Source: Candidatus Nitrospira inopinata
Lineage (GTDB): Bacteria > Nitrospirota > Nitrospiria > Nitrospirales > Nitrospiraceae
Direction: 5' to 3'
DNA length: 32,000 nucleotides
NCBI RefSeq assembly: GCF_001458695.1
Contig: NZ_LN885086.1
Location: 1,020,001 to 1,052,000, forward strand
Positions 1 to 17,346 of this stretch are shown piece by piece (position 1 is the first letter of the stretch; each line of letters begins with the position of its first letter). Under the pieces are notes generated by a model. That model saw nothing but the letters and a program-made list of their open reading frames with translations. It ran no database searches and was not told the DNA's origin. The position numbers were made by a program, and so were the translations under genes.

Positions 1-957
1 GGTGCGGAACGTGACACCGGGCACGCGGGTTCTGATGCGCTCGACCAGCTTCTCGATCGAGGCCCGGTTGCCCAGCCGGTGCATGGCCTTGAGCAGGGCA
101 TTGTTGATGTGTTGAAGGGGCATGTCGATGTAGTGGGCGATCGTTTCCTCGCTCGCGTACAGATCGAGCAACTCGTCCGTGACCTGCTGAGGATAGAGAT
201 AGAAGGGCCTGATCCAGTGAAGGCCCTTGACCTTCACCAGTTCGCGGAGCAGGCTCACGAGCCCCTGGCGCAAACCCAGATCAACGCCGTAGTTGATCGT
301 GTCTTGCGAAATGAGGTTGATCTCCTTGACGCCTTCCGCGGCCAGTTGCTTCACTTCCGCAACGATCGACTCGATCGGTCGGCTCTTCTGTTTGCCCCGC
401 ATGAGCGGAATGGCGCAGAAGGTGCAGTTGCGATTGCAGCCTTCGGCGATTTTGACATAGGCGCTGTGGCGCGCGCCGAGCCTGAGCCGCGGCGCCAGGT
501 CGTCGTAGAGATAGGGCGGCTGGCTGATCCACAGCCGCCGGTGCCGTTGCTTGGGCGCGAGCAGGTCTCGGCAGATGTCGGCGATTTTGCCGAACTCGCC
601 GGTCCCGACCACCGCGTCCAGTTCCGGCAGTTCCTTGAGCAGTTCCCCCTGGTACCGCTGGGCCAGGCAGCCGGCGGCGATCAGCACGCGGCAGGAGCCG
701 GCCTGTTTCAACGCTCCATGTTCGATGATCGCGTTGATCGACTCTTGTTTGGCTTCTTCGATGAACCCGCAGGTGTTGATGATAACGACTTCGGCTTCGC
801 TCGGATCGCCGGTGAGGCGAAATCCCTCCCGGGCGAGGGTGCCGAGCATCACTTCGGAATCGACCTGGTTTTTGGAACAGCCGAGGTTGACGAACCCGAT
901 GGTGGCGGTGCGGTCTTGTCCACCGACCGGATTTTCGCGCGTGGCGCGGCGGGGCAT
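1..957 (-). CDS. rimO: Ribosomal protein S12 methylthiotransferase RimO (radical-SAM MTTase); the 3' end runs off the window
   Basis: Absent from the ORF track because no stop lies in the window. My translation of the minus strand from the ATG (complement of 955-957) reads MPRRATRENPV..IGFVNLGCSKNQVDSEVMLG..INTCGFIEEAK..AEGCNRNCTFCAIPLMRG..ISQDTINYGVD..YIDMPLQHINN. That gives an MTTase N-domain plus a CxxxCxxC radical-SAM motif with RimO-like blocks. Confidence 0.85.
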   Translation of the reverse strand, partial: MPRRATRENPVGGQDRTATIGFVNLGCSKNQVDSEVMLGTLAREGFRLTGDPSEAEVVIINTCGFIEEAKQESINAIIEHGALKQAGSCRVLIAAGCLAQRYQGELLKELPELDAVVGTGEFGKIADICRDLLAPKQRHRRLWISQPPYLYDDLAPRLRLGARHSAYVKIAEGCNRNCTFCAIPLMRGKQKSRPIESIVAEVKQLAAEGVKEINLISQDTINYGVDLGLRQGLVSLLRELVKVKGLHWIRPFYLYPQQVTDELLDLYASEETIAHYIDMPLQHINNALLKAMHRLGNRASIEKLVERIRTRVPGVTFRT

Positions 958-981
958 GATCAATGGTGCAGACATGCGGGC

Positions 982-1058: not shown

Positions 1059-1090
1059 TTGACCCTGTACCTTGGTAGAGGGTGTAGAGT
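1059..1090 (+). promoter_or_regulatory. MerR-type promoter/operator: -35 TTGACC, 20-bp spacer containing an imperfect dyad, -10 TAGAGT
   Basis: TTGACC lies at 1059-1064 and TAGAGT at 1085-1090. The spacer is 20 bp, whereas other promoter-like sites in this window have 16-18 bp. A dyad ACCCTgTACC-tt-GGTAgAGGGT spans 1062-1083. This is the classic overlong-spacer layout of MerR-family operators. Confidence 0.5.
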
Positions 1091-1123
1091 ATCAGTGTGA
1101 GGGAAGGGGGTGGATGGGTCAGA

Positions 1124-1648
1124 ATGGGCGAGGCATGTCCCATTCGCACGATCGGGCAATTGGCCGAAGCGGGTGGCGTTGGTGTGCAGACGGTTCGGTA
1201 CTATGAGCGGCGACGTCTGCTGCTGCCCACCTCGCGGCTGCCTTCCGGCTATCGTCTCTATGGAGCGGAGGCGCTCCAACGGCTCCGTTTCATCAGGAAT
1301 GCGCAGGCTCTGGGGTTCACGCTGCGGGAAATTGAAGGGCTCCTAAACTTGCGTGTCTCGTCGGCTGCCCGGTGTGACGAGGTGCAGCAGGCCGCCCAGG
1401 CCAAGCTCGTGACGGTGGAGGCCAAGATTCGTGATCTGGAAGCGCTGGCCAGGGTGCTCCGGACCTTCATCCGGTCCTGCCGGGCGGGACGGCCGACGGA
1501 GCACTGCCCCATCCTGGCCAGCCTGGAATCTCCAACGTTGGAGTCCAATTCCAAGTCCAATGGAGGAAAGTTCAAAAAGTCCAATGGGGGAAGAGGTGGC
1601 AAGGGTCGCGCCAAGGAAAACCAGCGCCGCTATGAAAGCGGAGGGTGA
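1124..1648 (+). CDS. merR: MerR-family Hg(II)-responsive transcriptional regulator with an unusual basic Gly/Lys-rich C-terminal tail
   Basis: The N-terminal HTH reads IRTIGQLAEAGGVGVQTVRYYERRRLL. Three Cys residues have the same spacing as Tn501 MerR C82/C117/C126 (RCDE, then +35 to SC, then C-x8-C in CRAGRPTEHCPILASL). ATG 1124 is preferred over GTG 1097, the track start. GTG 1097 sits 6 nt after the -10 box and remains possible. Confidence 0.85.
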   Translation: MGEACPIRTIGQLAEAGGVGVQTVRYYERRRLLLPTSRLPSGYRLYGAEALQRLRFIRNAQALGFTLREIEGLLNLRVSSAARCDEVQQAAQAKLVTVEAKIRDLEALARVLRTFIRSCRAGRPTEHCPILASLESPTLESNSKSNGGKFKKSNGGRGGKGRAKENQRRYESGG

Positions 1649-2064
1649 AGGGGCAGGTGACGGGGATGATAAGGGCGGAGGACCAAGAGAATCACTACGG
1701 TCGGCGGGTGAGCACGACCACGGCGGTCGGTGGGGTGGTGGCGGCGGTGGTCTCGTCTGTCTGCTGCTTGGGGCCGCTCCTGCTCGCGGCAGTGGGGGTG
1801 GGGGCTGGAGCGACTGGGTTCTGGGCTGGAACGGCCGACGTCATGAAGGCCCTGTTGCCCTATCGACCGTTGTTTATCGCCGCGGCGGTCGGATGTTTCG
1901 CCGTGAGTTTTTATCTGGTCTATCGTAGGCCGGTCGTTGCGTGTGGGTCTGACGGGGTCTGTGAGCGGCCTGCTCAGCATCGAGTGACGAGATGGCTGCT
2001 CTGGACCCTGGCCGGGCTCGCGCTGGCGTTCATCATGGCCCCCTATTGGTTGGGGCTGGAATGA
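1645..2064 (+). CDS. merT: Mercuric ion transport protein MerT
   Basis: TM1 carries the vicinal pair SSVCCLGPLLLAAVG. The YRP motif is present, and the loop pair VACGSDGVCERP (C-x5-C) matches MerT AACKPGEVCAIP. A third TM follows. The GTG start overlaps the merR stop (GTGA). An alternative ATG lies at 1666. Confidence 0.8.
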   Translation: MKGQVTGMIRAEDQENHYGRRVSTTTAVGGVVAAVVSSVCCLGPLLLAAVGVGAGATGFWAGTADVMKALLPYRPLFIAAAVGCFAVSFYLVYRRPVVACGSDGVCERPAQHRVTRWLLWTLAGLALAFIMAPYWLGLE

Positions 2065-2100
2065 GGGGCATTCCATTCGAAATGCGAAGGAGGGATTGTT

Positions 2101-2475
2101 ATGAGGCCACATCCCAATCGTCTGAAGCTTGCGTTGTTCGTGTTGAGCTGGCTTGCGCTCGTGATAGTGGGAGAAACTTGGCAGCACACCGCTGCTGTGG
2201 CAGGAAGCGGGGAGCAGACCGTGACGCTCAAAATTGAAGGGGTCACCTGCGGGTCGTGCGTGAAGGACGTGCGTGCCGCCCTTCAGAAACTGCCCGGCGT
2301 CAAGACCGTCGAAATCAAGGTCGGCACCAAGTGGGGCTTGCTCAATGACTATACGGACACGAAGGCGCTGATCACGTTCGATCCGGGTCAAACAGGAGTG
2401 GAGGCGTTAGTCAAAGCGGTCGAGTCGGCGAGCACGGCGCTCTCGACCTATCGGGCCCGGCTCTTGCCTGGTTGA
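2101..2475 (+). CDS. merP: Periplasmic mercury-binding protein MerP (HMA domain with signal peptide)
   Basis: An N-terminal hydrophobic signal (LALFVLSWLALVIV) is followed by QTVTLKIEGVTCGSCVKDVRAAL, the GMTCxxC-type heavy-metal-associated motif. A strong SD, AAGGAGGG, lies 6 nt upstream of the ATG. Confidence 0.8.
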   Translation: MRPHPNRLKLALFVLSWLALVIVGETWQHTAAVAGSGEQTVTLKIEGVTCGSCVKDVRAALQKLPGVKTVEIKVGTKWGLLNDYTDTKALITFDPGQTGVEALVKAVESASTALSTYRARLLPG

Positions 2476-2512
2476 TCAATCAAGGATGGTCTGGGAGAAG
2501 GAGGGCGAGCGA

Positions 2513-2899
2513 ATGGAGCAGCAGACGACAGCACAGATGACGGAGGAAGCCCTGTTTGCCGAGCTGCGACGGCTGAGTCCCAAGGTAACGGGCGGGTTGG
2601 TCCGGATGCGGCAAGAGGCCTATCGGGATGGCGCCGTACCGGCCAAATACAAACTGCTGACCGCGATGGCCATTTCGATTGCGATTCGCTGCGAGCCTTG
2701 CATTCGGGCCTATGTGCGGATGGCCTGTGAGAAAGGTGTTACGCAGGAGGAATTGATCGAGTTCCTCGAAGTGGCCATGACTATGCAGGGCTGCCCTGGT
2801 GAGGAATGGGCCCTCAAGGCCTTTGGGTTTTACAAAGAATGGCGGTCCAGCCGGATTGACGGCCAGACTGTAACCTGTTGCTCGACCCATCAGGCCTGA
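2513..2899 (+). CDS. Carboxymuconolactone decarboxylase (AhpD-like) family protein with a CxxC motif and a C-terminal vicinal Cys pair
   Basis: AKYKLLTAMAISIAIRCEPCIRAYVRMACEKGVTQEELIEFLEVA is typical of the CMD/AhpD core, with CxxC as C-E-P-C. The C-terminus ends ..TVTCCSTHQA. AGGAGG at 2499-2504 lies 8 nt before ATG 2513, so this start is preferred over the track start 2486. Confidence 0.75.
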   Translation: MEQQTTAQMTEEALFAELRRLSPKVTGGLVRMRQEAYRDGAVPAKYKLLTAMAISIAIRCEPCIRAYVRMACEKGVTQEELIEFLEVAMTMQGCPGEEWALKAFGFYKEWRSSRIDGQTVTCCSTHQA

Positions 2900-2979: not shown

Positions 2980-3516
2980 ATGATTCGGGCGTTTCAGGGT
3001 ATCCTGCCCAAAATTCCCAAGTCCTGCTTCATTGAAGAGACGGCCGTCGTGATCGGCGACGTGGTGATGGGCGAGGAGTGCAGCGTCTGGTTCCACGCCG
3101 TGATCCGCGGCGACGTGCACTATATCCGCATTGGCGATCGGACCAATGTGCAGGACCTCTCCATGCTCCACGTGACGCACGACACTCACCCGCTTGTGAT
3201 CGGCAGCGAGGTCACCATCGGCCACCATGTGGTGCTGCACGGCTGCACGATCGAGGATCGGGTGCTGGTCGGCATGGGCGCGATCGTGATGGATGGAGCG
3301 GTGATCGGCGAAGGGTCGATCGTCGGAGCCGGGGCCCTCGTCACGGAAGGAACGATTGTGCCGCCCAAGAGTTTGATACTCGGCTCACCGGCCAAGGTGA
3401 AACGGCCGGTGACAGACAAAGAACTGGCCTGGATCAAGGAATCGGCCGACAACTACGCGCGCTACGCCCGCACCTACCTGAACCCGCCCTCAAGGCCGAC
3501 GGGGTTTGTCGTGTAG
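2980..3516 (+). CDS. Gamma-class carbonic anhydrase family / hexapeptide-repeat (YrdA/PaaY-like) protein
   Basis: The left-handed beta-helix hexapeptide pattern is present, with conserved blocks VWFHAVIRGD..IRIGDRTNVQD..HV..IGHHVVLHGCTI and SLILGSPAKVKR. Confidence 0.85.
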   Translation: MIRAFQGILPKIPKSCFIEETAVVIGDVVMGEECSVWFHAVIRGDVHYIRIGDRTNVQDLSMLHVTHDTHPLVIGSEVTIGHHVVLHGCTIEDRVLVGMGAIVMDGAVIGEGSIVGAGALVTEGTIVPPKSLILGSPAKVKRPVTDKELAWIKESADNYARYARTYLNPPSRPTGFVV

Positions 3517-3767: not shown

Positions 3768-4211
3768 TCAAGGGGAATCGGCCGCCGTCAGGGGGTTCGT
3801 CCACTTGAGGCCGGGGAAGCGGGAAAAATCTTGATCCGTGGTGTAAAGCGTTGCCCCGTGCTCAATGGCAATCGCGGCCAACACGGCATCCATGACCAGC
3901 GGTCCGGTGGCCTGCCCCGTGCGCAAGAGACGGCAGAGGATGTCCCAGTGACGTTCACCTGCATCGAGGATTCCGGCCACCGGTTGCTCCAGCCAGGACG
4001 AAACCACCGCTTCGGCTTCGGATGTTGAGAAGGGATGCTCGAACACGCGGGGGCTGGTGGAGACCCTGAGAAACGCCCAGATCGTGAGCCAGGCAAAGCG
4101 CACCAATTCTGAGCCGGACAGTGTGGCTTCTAGCCATGCGCGACTGGCTTCGTGCTGAGCAGCTCTCGTGTGGTAGGCGTAGAGGAGCAGGTTGGCATCA
4201 ATAAGGATCAT
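3768..4211 (-). CDS. vapC: Type II toxin VapC (PIN-domain ribonuclease)
   Basis: The N-terminus MILIDANLLLY carries the first PIN acidic residue. Later motifs are LVMDAVLAAIAIEHGATLYTTDQDF. There is a 4-nt ATGA overlap with the upstream antitoxin gene. Confidence 0.85.
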   Translation of the reverse strand: MILIDANLLLYAYHTRAAQHEASRAWLEATLSGSELVRFAWLTIWAFLRVSTSPRVFEHPFSTSEAEAVVSSWLEQPVAGILDAGERHWDILCRLLRTGQATGPLVMDAVLAAIAIEHGATLYTTDQDFSRFPGLKWTNPLTAADSP

Positions 4212-4453
4212 CGGTGGAGCGGACCTTCCACCTGCTCGATCAGGTCTGCGATGCTATCCAAGGTGAGGCCGGGCTGAAGGTTCCCGAGGTCTCGACACAT
4301 GACCCTGAATGGCTTCCGAGAAACAGAGCGCTGAGTCGCGAGGCCGCGCCGCAGCGCGGCATTGACCGTCTCTCGAAAGGAGAGGCCCGAGCGGCGAGCC
4401 TCTGCCTTAAGCTTGGCGGCGACGTCGTCATCGAGGGTCAGGGTGGTGCGCAT
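4208..4453 (-). CDS. vapB: Type II antitoxin VapB (small DNA-binding antitoxin)
   Basis: This 81-aa protein begins MRTTLTLDDDVAAKLKAEARRSGLSFRETVNAALRRGL, a typical antitoxin N-terminal DNA-binding fold. It is translationally coupled to vapC. Confidence 0.8.
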   Translation of the reverse strand: MRTTLTLDDDVAAKLKAEARRSGLSFRETVNAALRRGLATQRSVSRKPFRVMCRDLGNLQPGLTLDSIADLIEQVEGPLHR

Positions 4454-4963: not shown

Positions 4964-5710
4964 TCAACCCGGCTCCATGTTGGGGGAACCTCCTTTTCGG
5001 ATAAGACCTCGACCGAGGCGGACAAAACACACGGGGTCACCAACCAGTGCCGTCGGGTAGTAGTTCCGCTCCACGTGATAGGGTACTCGGTGCCGGTGGC
5101 ACCAGTCGGCGATCCAGACCACTTCTTCGACGGAGGTGGTGACCAGGGCGGGCAAGCTCAGCTTGGCCAGGCATCGGTTGACGATGGACTGCACCATTCG
5201 GCGCTGCCGTTCGAAGCGCGTGATGTTGAACGTGATCGGGTTCGCGTTTCCATAGGATAGGGCTGAGAGGTCGGGAAACCGCTCTGGGTCGTTCAACACG
5301 CTCACGATCCAGAGATGATCGAACGGGCCCTGAGCTGTTTCGGCGGTTCGTGCCCGGAAGGTGATCCCGCTGCCCTGACAAGCACGGTTGAGAACGGCCA
5401 CTTCGGCCCGGCGGAGGTTATAGGGTTCGACTTGCCGGTGCAATTCCAACGATTCGGCCAGAAGACAGGGCAATTCCGTGACTCCAGCGCCGACGTAGAG
5501 GCTTCGGCAGCCGCGCCGCAGCTTGTTCACCAGTGCTTCGGCCAGCTTGAGGCCTAGCCGTTCACAGGGCCTTCGTTTGGCCTGCCAGAACTCATCGCCC
5601 CCTTCGTAGCAGTAGACCGGACCGAGCCGATGGTAATCGAGTCGGTCGAAGAGGCGACGGATCTCGCGTCTGGTCTCCGGCGAAACGGTCATCTTGAGAT
5701 TGCTGAGCAC
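4964..5710 (-). CDS. Hypothetical protein; possible Rossmann-fold (SAM-methyltransferase-like) domain
   Basis: This 248-aa ORF has protein-like composition. SLYVGAGVTELP resembles MTase motif I (GxGxx), followed by VEPYNL and FDHLWIVSVL, which would fit motifs post-I and II. I do not recognise a family. The start is uncertain (GTG 5710 or ATG 5692). Confidence 0.6.
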   Translation of the reverse strand: MLSNLKMTVSPETRREIRRLFDRLDYHRLGPVYCYEGGDEFWQAKRRPCERLGLKLAEALVNKLRRGCRSLYVGAGVTELPCLLAESLELHRQVEPYNLRRAEVAVLNRACQGSGITFRARTAETAQGPFDHLWIVSVLNDPERFPDLSALSYGNANPITFNITRFERQRRMVQSIVNRCLAKLSLPALVTTSVEEVVWIADWCHRHRVPYHVERNYYPTALVGDPVCFVRLGRGLIRKGGSPNMEPG

Positions 5711-14541: not shown

Positions 14542-14582
14542 CGGGTACGGAGATCGCCGGGATCAGCCGCGGACCATTGATT

Positions 14583-15185
14583 TCAGAGGTCTCGGCGCCC
14601 TTCGATGGACTTGAGGAGGGTCACTTCGTCGGCGTATTCGATGTCCGTTCCCACGGGAATGCCGTAGGCGATGCGAGACACGCGCGTTCCGAGCGGCTTG
14701 AGCAGTTTGGTGAGATAAATGGCGGTGGCTTCTCCTTCAATGGTGGGGTTCGTCGCGAGGATGACTTCTTCCACACCACCCGTTTTGACGCGATCGACCA
14801 ATTCATCGGCTCGGATGTCCGATGGACCGACTCCGTCAAGGGGAGAGAGGGAACCCAGGAGAACATGGTACAGCCCGCGGTACGCGCCCGCCCGTTCGAT
14901 CGCATACAGCGTGCTCGGTTCCTCGATGACGAGAATCCTGGTTCGATCGCGCTTGGGGTCGAGACAAAATTCACAGAGGTCTCCTTCGGCGATGTTGCGG
15001 CATTGCCGGCAGAACGCCAATCCTTCCTTGACCGATCGAATCGCGTCGGCCAGGCGCAATGCCTCCTCCCGTTCCATTTTCATGAGATGAAAGGCGAGTC
15101 GCTGCGCGCTCTTTTGCCCGATTCCCGGAAGACGGACCAATTCTCTGATCAGTCGCGCCAAGAGACCCTGTTGATCGACTGCCAT
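14583..15185 (-). CDS. recR: Recombination protein RecR
   Basis: The translation contains LIRELVRLPGIGQKSAQRLAFHL (HhH), CRQCRNIAEGDLCEFC (C4 zinc finger) and a Toprim region ILVIEEPSTLYAIERAGAYRGLYHVLLG. Confidence 0.95.
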   Translation of the reverse strand: MAVDQQGLLARLIRELVRLPGIGQKSAQRLAFHLMKMEREEALRLADAIRSVKEGLAFCRQCRNIAEGDLCEFCLDPKRDRTRILVIEEPSTLYAIERAGAYRGLYHVLLGSLSPLDGVGPSDIRADELVDRVKTGGVEEVILATNPTIEGEATAIYLTKLLKPLGTRVSRIAYGIPVGTDIEYADEVTLLKSIEGRRDL

Positions 15186-15196
15186 GCGCGAGACCG

Positions 15197-15520
15197 TCAG
15201 AAGAGGCCGGGGATCTTGAGTCCCCCGGTCAGGGCTTTCATCTCTTGTTCCATCAAGTCCTTGGCTTTCCGCAGCGCGTCATTGCCGGCCGCGACGACCA
15301 GGTCTTGCAGCATTTCGACGTCCCCGCTCTTGATCAGTTCGGGGTCGATCGTCACGCTGACGATCTGTAACGCGCCGTTGGCCGTCACGGTTACGATGCC
15401 GCCCCCGGCCGTTCCGCTGGCGGTCTTGGACGCCGCTTGCTCTTGGAGTTTGGCCATCTGTTCTTGCATGGCTTGGGCCTGCTTGAGAATCGTGCTCATA
15501 TTGCCGAAAGGGTTTTTCAT
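15197..15520 (-). CDS. ybaB: Nucleoid-associated protein YbaB/EbfC
   Basis: This 107-aa protein contains NMSTILKQAQAMQEQMAKLQEQ..GGGIVTVTANG..V.IDPEL..D.EMLQDLV.AA.NDA. It has an ATGA overlap with the dnaX stop. Confidence 0.9.
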   Translation of the reverse strand: MKNPFGNMSTILKQAQAMQEQMAKLQEQAASKTASGTAGGGIVTVTANGALQIVSVTIDPELIKSGDVEMLQDLVVAAGNDALRKAKDLMEQEMKALTGGLKIPGLF

Positions 15521-17346
15521 TCGGTCGCCTCCTTCTTGGATACCTGACGAACTTCGGCCAACTCGGCGCCGAAGATCTCGATCGCCTGCTTGATCACGGG
15601 ATTGGCCCGGGCTCGCTCAAAGAGCACCAGTCGTTGATCCTGTTCTTTGGCCGCCCGTATTTGGGCCATGGTCGGGCCCGGCGGATCGGTGTCCGCGAGT
15701 TCGATGATTCGGATCCGGACCGGACGCCCCGCTTGTTGCTCGCACAATTGGGTCAGCGCGCGCATGTTCTCTTCCTTCTCCAGTCTGGTTCGCGCCAGGC
15801 CGTTGTGTTTTGCAAATCCGATCGTCACGGCTCCGTCTTTTATTCCGAGGTACCGGCCGACCTCCAGAAACGGCGCGATATTGGGAAAGGAAGCGGCGAC
15901 TTCTTCCTGGACCGCTTCCCAATTGAGTTGCCGAGGATCGTCACCCGTCGGAGAAGCGGGAACCGAAACGGCGCTCTCCGCTTCTTGGGCGCGCGGCTGA
16001 TCGAGCTGCCGCGGAGGGATTCGTCCTTGAGGCGGCGGGGACTGCCCCGTGGTGGTTGTCGCGGTGGTCGTCAATGAGCGACCGGAAGAAGCGGTCGAGC
16101 CGGTGTGGGGAGGAGGGACGGGAGAAAGATCCGATGCCGGGGTCGAGGATCTGTCCGATGAGACGGGGGGAGGGCCTGAAGGAATGGACGGCTTCCGCTC
16201 GGCCGGCACGGACGATGTCCGAGAGGAAGGAACAACGTCGGCGGGTCGATTCAACGACCGGATTGCGCGAATAGCCGCCGCTTCCATGACGAACCGAGGA
16301 TGAGCGCTCAACCGAAGGGATTCTTCCGTGTGAATGAAGATCGTCAACAGTCCCTGCAACTCGTCGGGCGTCAGGGTCTTAGCGTCCTCGGTCAACTGCC
16401 GAACGTCTTCGTGAGAGGCGTCGATAAGGCTCTCGAGCTGGGTTGACGTCGGGACGACGGACGCCACAAGAAGATTGCGCACCTGCTCGACGATCTCGGC
16501 GCAGAACGTTCGGAGATCGTGTCCCTGGTCGAGCAGAGACGCCAACGTGCCGAGCGCCGCGGGGCCGTTTCGAGCCAACACCGCCTTGATGAACTCCTGC
16601 ACCAATTCGTGCGGGACCGCGCCCAGCAAAAGTTCAAGGTCCTGATGGCGGATCGTCTTCCCTCCAAAGGAGACCGCTTGATCGAGCAGGCTGAGGGCGT
16701 CCCGCATGCTCCCTTCACTGGCGCGGGCTAACGCGAGGAGGCTGCGGTCCTCGATCGTCAACCGCTCTTCTTGGGCGACATGACGAAGCCGTTCGACAAG
16801 CTCGGCCCGCGCGATGCGGCGAAAATTGTAGTGCTGGCAGCGCGAGAGAATCGTCGCGGGAATTTTGTGAATTTCCGTCGTCGCGAAGATGAAGACGACG
16901 TGAGCGGGCGGCTCTTCAAGCGTTTTGAGCAGAGCGTTGAACGCCGAGTTGGAGAGCATGTGCACTTCATCGATGATGTAGACCCGATACCGACCGCGGA
17001 AGGGCATGAATTTGATGTTCTCTCGAATCTCCCGCACGTCGTCCACGCTGGTGTTGGACGCCCCGTCAATCTCCACGACGTCGGCGGAACTTCCCTGGGC
17101 GATCTCGAGACAATTCGCGCAGCGATTGCAAGGCTGGCCCGTGGGGCCTTGCTCGCAGTTCAAGGCCTTCGCCAGGATGCGAGCGACGGTGGTTTTTCCG
17201 ACGCCCCGAGTCCCGGAAAACAGGTATGCGTGGGCGATGCGCTTGGTCGAGATCGCGTTCAAGAGCGTCTGAACGATGTGTGGCTGGCCGATCACATCAG
17301 CAAACGTGCCGGGGCGGTATTTACGGGCGGAGACCTGGTAATCCAT
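15517..17346 (-). CDS. dnaX: DNA polymerase III subunit gamma/tau
   Basis: The translation contains YRPGTFADVIGQPHIVQTL..HAYLFSGTRGVGKTTVARILAKALNC, a zinc module C-x8-C-x2-C-x2-C, and YIIDEVHMLS. A Pro/Ser/Thr-rich linker and a tau C-terminal region follow. Confidence 0.95.
   Translation of the reverse strand: MDYQVSARKYRPGTFADVIGQPHIVQTLLNAISTKRIAHAYLFSGTRGVGKTTVARILAKALNCEQGPTGQPCNRCANCLEIAQGSSADVVEIDGASNTSVDDVREIRENIKFMPFRGRYRVYIIDEVHMLSNSAFNALLKTLEEPPAHVVFIFATTEIHKIPATILSRCQHYNFRRIARAELVERLRHVAQEERLTIEDRSLLALARASEGSMRDALSLLDQAVSFGGKTIRHQDLELLLGAVPHELVQEFIKAVLARNGPAALGTLASLLDQGHDLRTFCAEIVEQVRNLLVASVVPTSTQLESLIDASHEDVRQLTEDAKTLTPDELQGLLTIFIHTEESLRLSAHPRFVMEAAAIRAIRSLNRPADVVPSSRTSSVPAERKPSIPSGPPPVSSDRSSTPASDLSPVPPPHTGSTASSGRSLTTTATTTTGQSPPPQGRIPPRQLDQPRAQEAESAVSVPASPTGDDPRQLNWEAVQEEVAASFPNIAPFLEVGRYLGIKDGAVTIGFAKHNGLARTRLEKEENMRALTQLCEQQAGRPVRIRIIELADTDPPGPTMAQIRAAKEQDQRLVLFERARANPVIKQAIEIFGAELAEVRQVSKKEATE

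Follow-up and report, generated by a model that had tools for sequence, protein, structure and literature searches.

A carboxymuconolactone decarboxylase/AhpD-fold protein encoded with merR, merT and merP in Candidatus Nitrospira inopinata, a putative cytosolic acceptor of imported Hg(II)

The mer operon is among the best-studied bacterial detoxification systems, and merA serves as a marker in environmental surveys of mercury cycling. The locus considered here lies in a 32,000-nucleotide stretch of the Candidatus Nitrospira inopinata genome (contig NZ_LN885086.1, positions 1,020,001 to 1,052,000; hereafter the window) and consists of merR, merT and merP followed by a gene for a 128-residue protein of the carboxymuconolactone decarboxylase (CMD)/AhpD family. 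With the mer operons of Tn21 and Tn501 it shares a three-cysteine MerR, a dyad with the half-site TCCGTAC set in an over-long promoter spacer, a MerT with a Cys-Cys pair in the first transmembrane helix (TM1) and a cytosolic cysteine pair, and a MerP of the MxCxxC type. It departs from them in that merA, merD and merE are absent, merR is co-directional and comes first, the spacer is 20 rather than 19 bp, the proteins are 35-39% identical and merP is followed by a gene for a CMD-fold protein. Another described cluster, 'merRT-delta-P' of plasmid pMOL30 in Cupriavidus metallidurans CH34 (Rmet_5990-5992), is listed with a question mark for its function (Janssen et al. 2010, PMC2864759, Table 5). 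There, too, merR, merT and merP stand without merA and are followed by a CMD protein of the same subfamily (...CEPCFKFY...GGCVGEMWALKA...EPSCCQ); the pMOL30 cluster differs in its divergent merR, its merP disrupted by a frameshift, its plasmid location and its position beside the merRTPADE of Tn4380, and in the CH34 literature that we examined the CMD gene is not counted as part of it. The review of mer by Christakis (2021) makes no mention of a CMD/AhpD gene, Boyd and Barkay (2012) refer to uncharacterised homologues embedded in mer operons and say nothing further, and our full-text searches (Nitrospira mer, selenoprotein AhpD, CH34 locus tags) found no published description of CMD/AhpD genes in mer operons. 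The mer-associated CMD family seems to be a component of mercury handling that has so far gone undescribed.

The strongest evidence for such a role is that the CMD gene is linked to merR and to three unrelated families of Hg importers (merT/P, merC and merF), in varying gene orders and across phyla, which argues that its product works with imported Hg(II). Among 80 Nitrospira loci from different GTDB species, mapped by tblastn, a mer gene lies no more than 3 kb from the CMD gene in 77; where at least 2 kb is available on both sides (52 loci), merR is found in 51, an importer gene (merT or a member of the MerF family, PF11431) in 40 and merP in 36. Linkage to merR is near-universal among the Nitrospira loci, whereas linkage to ars genes is not. 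In a second sample, 80 metagenome loci retrieved with an alignment of distant subfamily members about 38% identical to the Nitrospira clade, merR, merT, merP, merC or merE adjoins the CMD gene in 72, again in several gene orders. The initial annotation, made from the sequence alone, had set beforehand as a test that a CMD subfamily with a C-terminal Cys-Cys pair should recurrently follow merTP, and both samples bear this out strongly. Dozens of genomes repeat this gene order, which chance comes nowhere near explaining. Named carriers in the distant clade include Legionella pneumophila, L. anisa, Berkiella, Burkholderiales and other Proteobacteria: the megaplasmid of Ralstonia solanacearum and plasmid pRX1 of Methylocapsa polymorpha have a divergent merR, then merT-merP-CMD and nothing more, and a conjugative element (ICE) of L. 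pneumophila has CMD-merR-merC. On a plasmid of L. anisa (NZ_CP082853; L167, 4001-4669) a frameshift divides the CMD gene, after which come a short fragment of an 'FAD-binding oxidoreductase' and a DUF3330 gene; this may be a degraded CMD-merA pair. Taken with the conserved features described below, this context makes the CMD protein very probably a functional mer component. As to what it does there, we lean, with no great assurance, towards a MerR-controlled import-and-capture module in which the CMD protein would accept Hg(II) in the cytosol and hand it on.

The features of the window that bear on this proposal are as follows.
1 to 975, minus strand: 5' part of rimO, whose translation reads as RimO and continues beyond the window edge; left border, divergent from the mer cluster
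1059 to 1090, plus strand: MerR-type promoter and operator, read from the sequence
1124 to 1648, plus strand: gene for a merR-like regulator of 174 residues (Pfam, NCBIfam, Tn21 alignment)
1645 to 2064, plus strand: merT, 139 residues from the GTG at 1645 (PF02411, Tn21 alignment)
2101 to 2475, plus strand: merP, with a signal peptide and GVTCGSC (PF00403, Tn21 alignment)
2513 to 2899, plus strand: gene for the mer-associated CMD/AhpD-fold protein of 128 residues (PF02627, structure model, synteny)
2980 to 3516, plus strand: gamma-carbonic anhydrase-like gene (Hexapep repeats, NF050158 at 200 bits); right border

The four reading frames of the cluster are intact, with 96-99% conservation in a Nitrospira metagenome-assembled genome (MAG) that holds the closest public locus (L001; the identity extends over rimO, merR, merT, merP, CMD, gamma-carbonic anhydrase and argB) and 78-90% in a sister locus (L002). 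As the initial annotation had stated, the merR stop overlaps the GTG of merT (GTGA, the GTG being at 1645), the CMD gene begins 37 nt past the merP stop behind a Shine-Dalgarno sequence, and the CMD protein has a C-E-P-C motif and the C-terminus ...TCCSTHQA. The Shine-Dalgarno sequence is GGAGGG, 8 nt 5' of the ATG, and an ATG at 1666 is an alternative start of merT. The same annotation had regarded a co-directional merR as atypical. It is the rule among the Nitrospira loci and therefore no oddity of this one, and it is also the standard arrangement in Gram-positive mer operons.

Upstream of merR, the site at 1059-1090 reads TTGACC, a 20-bp spacer with the dyad CCCTGTACC-tt-GGTAGAGGG, then TAGAGT, and so has the hallmark of a mer operator, a dyad inside a 19-20-bp spacer between the -35 and -10 elements. 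A promoter scan with 16-18-bp spacers misses it, as is to be expected of a MerR promoter. The sequence cTTGACTC(C/G)GTAC-N4-GTACAGGGTGTAnnnT is conserved 5' of merR in about 60 Nitrospira loci, the right arm in the window being somewhat diverged (GTAGAG as against GTACAG), and it has the layout and the left half-site TCCGTAC in common with Tn21 merOP (TTGACTCCGTACATGAGTACGGAAGTAAGGT; the reference sequence is found with 100% identity on R100, where it lies between merR and merT). Canonical operators of the form TTGACTCCGTAC-N4-GTACGG precede merT-merP-CMD in Ralstonia, Cupriavidus and Methylocapsa, with near-canonical examples in Ralstonia (TTGACTCCGTACTTTAGTACGGG) and CH34 (TTGACTCCGTACTCAGGTACGGG), and 5' of CMD-merR-merC in the L. 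pneumophila element (L162, 5930-6000) there is a MerR-type long-spacer promoter with another dyad (TTGACA-TTGGACTATAGTCCATGG-TTTAGACT), so that the operator sequence varies between clades. Because a mer-type operator resembling Tn21 merOP is conserved here, the window operon is most likely autoregulated and responsive to Hg(II).

The profiles proposed for the four proteins (MerR, PF02411, PF00403 and PF02627) all gave matches. The regulator matches the Pfam families MerR, MerR_1 and MerR-DNA-bind (E 2e-17 to 3e-11) and is 38% identical to Tn21 MerR (all Tn21 reference proteins were taken from R100); its three presumed Hg(II)-ligand cysteines, spaced as Cys, +35, C-x8-C as had been claimed, align with C82, C117 and C126. 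Its best NCBIfam match is TIGR02051 MerR at 124 bits (cutoff 151), with ZntR at 118. An unusual Lys/Gly/Asn-rich extension of 40 residues (1529-1645, ...SNSKSNGGKFKKSNGGRGGKGRAKENQRRYESGG) follows the metal-binding loop, and nothing comparable is present in Tn21 MerR. MerT reaches 68 bits for PF02411 (cutoff 33) and 66 of 150 for NCBIfam MerT; it is 39% identical to its Tn21 counterpart, with which the TM1 pair (VCCLGPL), PYRPLFI and the cytosolic C-GSDGV-C pair align, again in agreement with the earlier observation of a C-x5-C pair. MerP, 35% identical to that of Tn21, carries the predicted GVTCGSC within an HMA domain (PF00403), and its NCBIfam scores are 48 bits for MerP (cutoff 92.5) and 53 bits for UxxU_metal_bind, both under cutoff. 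The initial view of a true Hg(II) sensing and uptake module is thus strengthened by the mer-type operator and by the bona fide merA of orthologous operons (see below), and it is weakened by NCBIfam scores that remain under their cutoffs.

The CMD protein itself matches PF02627 (E 4e-17; 62.5 bits, cutoff 23), which places it in the CMD/AhpD family. Its key residues are C60-E-P-C63, Y67, C94 and C122-C123, the last pair in a tail predicted to be disordered. In 78 Nitrospira homologues R59-C60-E-P-C63, Y67, the block MTMQG-C94-PGEEW and the tail Cys-Cys are invariant, the tail around this pair being otherwise variable in length and sequence; in 51 sequences from the two clades, C60, E61, P62, C63, Y67, C94, C122 and C123 never change. 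The two cysteine motifs singled out by the initial annotation are therefore among the fixed positions. A search of 1.84 billion representative proteins returned only 65 clusters at E<=1e-10, and among the matches listed the features co-vary: CxxCxxxY proteins have GC(P/V)GE.W and the tail Cys-Cys, and CxxCxxxH relatives have MGGGP and no such tail. The protein is a member of a narrow, distinct subfamily, not a curated family, for which we propose RCEPC with Tyr at +4, GC(P/V)GE.W, a C-terminal Cys-Cys and adjacency to merR or an importer gene as defining marks, all of which the window protein displays. Its AlphaFold2 model (mean predicted local distance difference test, pLDDT, 83.8) is an all-helical five-helix AhpD-like bundle with CxxC at a helix N-terminus; residues 117-128, which include the Cys-Cys, have pLDDT <50. 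The nearest fold is Lpg0406 (5DIK; TM-score 0.75/0.85), the other best structural matches being TM1620 (1P8C/1VKE) and RclX (7Y4R). These proteins resemble ours in fold (about 30% identity) and in the position of the CxxC, but they have CxxCxxxH, an upstream Glu and MGGGP, no Cys-Cys tail and no mer gene context, whereas the mer-associated subfamily has CxxCxxxY, Leu for Glu, GC(P/V)GE.W and the Cys-Cys tail. The catalytic proton relay of AhpD has the motif E-x11-CxxC-x3-H. The alignment retains its CxxC and replaces the His by Tyr67 and the Glu by Leu48; with both positions changed and thiol ligands added, the peroxidase apparatus appears to be gone.

Gene content, operator, conserved residues and synteny across phyla can be read directly from these genomes, and from them we infer that Hg(II) would induce the operon, that the CMD protein would bind Hg(II) and in which direction the metal would pass. 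In this scheme, Hg(II)-bound MerR would activate the long-spacer promoter at 1059-1090, and MerP and MerT would bring periplasmic Hg(II) to the cytosolic cysteine pair of MerT. The CMD protein would serve as a dedicated cytosolic acceptor, its flexible Cys-Cys tail taking Hg(II) by thiol exchange and passing it to the buried C60-x-x-C63 site, probably with the participation of C94 and Y67. There the metal might be held, or a MerA, if present, might receive it, in cis in the relatives and possibly in trans here. The CMD protein would then play the part of NmerA or of the MerA C-terminal arm, although built on an AhpD scaffold that is unrelated and devoid of the peroxidase proton relay. The role of NmerA is said to have been worked out by Ledwidge and colleagues in 2005. 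The likeness that we propose is to a mobile cysteine pair (Cys558-Cys559 in the MerA arm) that takes Hg(II) and passes it to a buried pair; the difference is that the CMD protein is a separate polypeptide of all-helical AhpD fold, whereas NmerA has a ferredoxin-like HMA fold. Chen and Wilson reportedly engineered, in 1997, an Hg-accumulating Escherichia coli that combined MerT-MerP with metallothionein. In that strain, as may be the case here, a cytosolic thiol-rich sink beside an Hg importer removes the hypersensitivity that the importer causes; it was an artificial construct with an unrelated Cys-rich peptide as sink, and the CMD protein would be a natural one.

How the CMD gene relates to merA is informative in this respect. 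Neither MerA (recognised by a redox-active CxxxxC and a C-terminal Cys-Cys) nor a glutathione reductase (GR)-like flavoprotein was found in the 32 kb by tblastn with Tn21 and Nitrospira MerA or by a Pfam scan of large reading frames, the sole tblastn match being the HMA domain of MerP; the stated lack of MerA between rimO and the gamma-carbonic anhydrase gene thus holds for the whole window. A missing merA at the locus cannot be taken as a missing merA in the genome, because several MAGs have one merA-containing and one merA-less copy, so that MerA could be supplied in trans, and because CH34 has merRTPADE elsewhere. The 3-kb insert of L002 was considered as a hiding place for merA and codes for unrelated proteins. 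The importer and the CMD gene without nearby merA form the majority arrangement, in 30 of 36 Nitrospira loci with at least 3 kb of flank and 10 of 11 distant-clade loci with full flanks, and only a few of the 80 distant-clade loci have merA at all. Where a bona fide MerA (GGTCVNIGCVPSK ... SCCAA) does occur in Nitrospira (13 loci, ~15%), its gene lies 3' of the CMD gene on the same strand. This arrangement disposes, as a general statement, of the idea, put forward in the initial annotation, that the CMD protein stands in the place of MerA; the two genes in one operon indicate that their products work together, the CMD protein being an accessory of the mer system rather than just a substitute for the reductase. 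A strict replacement of NmerA was also considered and is only partly consistent with the data: a MerA whose gene directly abuts the CMD gene is core-only, without NmerA, and one separated from it by TPR or merF genes carries NmerA.

The tail of the CMD protein varies with its neighbours. All 16 Nitrospira CMD genes that precede MerA or a GR-like flavoprotein encode the end CC-x-x-COOH, as in MerA, whereas among the 39 CMD proteins with more than 8 residues after the Cys-Cys (long acidic tails) none precedes such an enzyme and 32 precede genes for the secreted proteins c2 and c6 or for RND pumps, counts that are uncorrected for phylogeny. Two tail classes can be seen in Nitrospira, ...CCxH-COOH, the only one found with MerA or GR-like enzymes, and Cys-Cys with a long acidic extension, found with RND genes; several MAGs have a member of either class, which suggests that the paralogues have become specialised and work with different partners. 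With 5 residues after the Cys-Cys, the window protein falls between the two.

Several points weigh against an acceptor role. Stoichiometric sequestration by a 128-residue protein would be an expensive strategy of resistance, and our literature searches found no biochemical or expression data for any member of the CMD subfamily. Five Nitrospira operons have a CMD gene together with an NmerA-bearing MerA, and the CMD protein is therefore not simply a replacement for NmerA. About 12 of the 52 fully flanked Nitrospira loci consist of merR-CMD without an importer, and N. moscoviensis has a CMD gene without merR. Cus/Czc-type RND pumps, P-type ATPases and a cupredoxin occur among the neighbours in relatives and would fit a broader soft-metal role equally. 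Finally, all four proteins pass the Pfam thresholds, though MerR, MerT and MerP stay under the NCBIfam equivalog cutoffs, and with ZntR scoring nearly as well as MerR the metal specificity in this lineage falls short of proof.

The most novel of the alternatives, which we consider unlikely, is that importer, MerR and CMD protein form a self-sufficient mercury system independent of MerA. In one version it would import and sequester, with a CMD oligomer that stores Hg(II) at high affinity and so shields the enzymes of the periplasm. In a more radical version it would be a split mercuric reductase, the CMD protein lending its mobile Cys-Cys arm in trans to a flavoprotein without one, which would echo the AhpD-DlaT-Lpd redox chain. 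Possible partners are a housekeeping Lpd-type enzyme or the GR-like enzymes encoded after the CMD gene, which replace MerA in 4 Nitrospira loci. These have the redox-active GGTCALRGCDPKK, a Tyr at the catalytic-His position of GR and Lpd (AYPTH) and no C-terminal cysteine pair, and they score 319 bits for GR and 312 for MerA, both under cutoff; such an enzyme may be MerA-like and rely on the Cys-Cys tail of the CMD protein. A His-to-Tyr change at a catalytic position, as in the CMD subfamily, also sets MerA apart from glutathione reductase. Genes for GR/MerA-like flavoproteins lie directly 3' of the CMD gene at L025 (6466-7821), L045 (6960-8372), L070 (1994-3354), L078 (3514-4875), L118 (7506-8846) and L129 (5367-6725).

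It is rather improbable, in our judgement, that the CMD protein acts as a thiol-disulfide oxidoreductase or peroxidase of the AhpD type, co-induced with mer and never itself carrying Hg(II), and counters the thiol oxidation that Hg provokes or keeps the Mer cysteines reduced. The CMD/AhpD fold with its CxxC at a helix N-terminus would suit such a role, the nearest solved relatives (Lpg0406, TM1620 and RclX) are annotated as antioxidant proteins, and some Nitrospira operons include a thioredoxin-like gene. However, the proton-relay residues are replaced in every member (His to Tyr, Glu to Leu), the features added by the subfamily, an extra Cys and a vicinal pair on a flexible tail, are typical of soft-metal ligands, the type of tail tracks the presence of MerA, and the linkage is to Hg importers and MerR, not to peroxiredoxins.

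Another rival of the acceptor proposal is decay: the cluster might be what remains of a merR-T-P-CMD-merA operon, either with no current function or in complete dependence on a MerA from another part of the genome, and the missing merA would then say nothing about the role of the CMD protein. Such losses have taken place in some operons, as indicated by merA-like fragments just 3' of the CMD gene in L017 (6392-6577, 81% identity to Nitrospira MerA) and L015 (7804-7941, 57%), and the MAGs with both kinds of copy, as well as the frameshifted merP of pMOL30 in a strain with merRTPADE elsewhere, can be read in the same way. For the window we find it quite doubtful: its four reading frames are intact and conserved in L001 and L002, tblastn found no merA relic in it, most loci of two distant clades have the importer with CMD and no merA, and Ralstonia and Methylocapsa have a clean four-gene unit.

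That the system is directed to some other soft metal or metalloid (Cu(I), Ag(I), Au, Cd, Pb, Zn or As(III)), its mer-like names reflecting homology only, is very unlikely, since the sub-threshold NCBIfam scores (ZntR close to MerR, a generic metal-binding family as best match of MerP), the same three-Cys spacing in PbrR, the relatives situated among cusCBA-like pumps, P-type ATPases, cupredoxin and arsM/arsS/arsR, and the arsenic-associated nature of the NCBIfam families nearest to the CMD protein (TIGR04169 and an ArsM/AhpD fusion) are opposed by an operator whose half-site and layout match Tn21 merOP, by bona fide MerA, MerF, MerC and MerE in orthologous operons and by a Ralstonia regulator that the Prokaryotic Genome Annotation Pipeline (PGAP) annotates as Hg(II)-responsive MerR. 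Membership in the arsenosugar-associated TIGR04169 was itself rejected (44.9 bits, cutoff 120); this family and the ArsM/AhpD fusion selenoprotein NF041537 are the best NCBIfam matches of the CMD protein, which nonetheless scores far under both cutoffs (45 of 120; 41 of 510), and the ars genes beside Nitrospira loci lie on the opposite strand and have an ArsR of their own.

If the CMD protein does partner MerT/P, MerC or MerF in lineages as far apart as Nitrospira, Legionella and Ralstonia, mostly with no merA beside it, then one member of the mer gene set has been overlooked, surveys based on merA miss a common type of Hg-handling locus, and natural merTP clusters without merA, which are expected to be hypersensitising, gain a concrete candidate answer. 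We think the finding worth pursuing because the family is found widely, has a sharp sequence signature and includes members in model organisms; its occurrence in the tractable C. metallidurans CH34 (pMOL30), R. solanacearum and L. pneumophila makes a direct test of the hypothesis possible. Mercury tolerance of Nitrospira is also of practical relevance, since these bacteria are key nitrifiers in drinking-water and wastewater systems.

As to the wider neighbourhood, the fullest Nitrospira region reads arsM-arsR-arsS-PiT (divergent), then merR-(thioredoxin-like)-merT-merP-(cupredoxin)-CMD-(TPR)-(merF)-merA-c2-c6-cusCBA-like RND. Of its less familiar members, c2 is a secreted protein of 179 residues, usually encoded directly 3' of the CMD gene (e.g., L052, 6381-6917), and c6 a secreted protein of 124 residues encoded 5' of the cusCBA-like RND pump (e.g., L037, 8423-8794); neither has a Pfam or NCBIfam match. 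Both also occur in about 30 other loci and appear to be part of the same MerR-headed gene string. The arsM-arsR-arsS-PiT cluster is divergent from merR in about 38 of the 80 Nitrospira loci (e.g., L005, 671-4409; L010; L037; L049), with arsM coding for an arsenite methyltransferase and arsS for the arsenosugar radical-SAM enzyme (448 bits), an adjacency that could reflect co-location in an island or shared ancestry. The chromosome of N. moscoviensis NSP M-1 (L007, 4657-6417) is the sole fully flanked Nitrospira locus whose CMD gene lacks merR, merT and merP; it is preceded by a reading frame with a Cys-x-x-Cys motif (WCGYC) and by another reading frame.

At the borders of the window locus, the rimO flank, with a sigma-70-like promoter at 1011-982 on the minus strand, is common to the window, L001 and L002, and among the Nitrospira loci compared the gamma-carbonic anhydrase flank is shared with these two only; this last gene is outside the conserved module. 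Between it and the CMD gene (2899-2980) no terminator-like site was found, and transcriptional read-through is possible. A compositional island was looked for and rejected, the GC content being flat over the window, and the locus therefore does not have the look of a recent acquisition. The reading frames at 4964-5710 (minus strand, 248 residues) and 14577-15593 (338 residues) have no Pfam match. On the minus strand 3' of the gamma-carbonic anhydrase gene, a pair of genes at 3768-4453 has translations resembling a VapC/PIN toxin (147 residues) and an antitoxin (81 residues).

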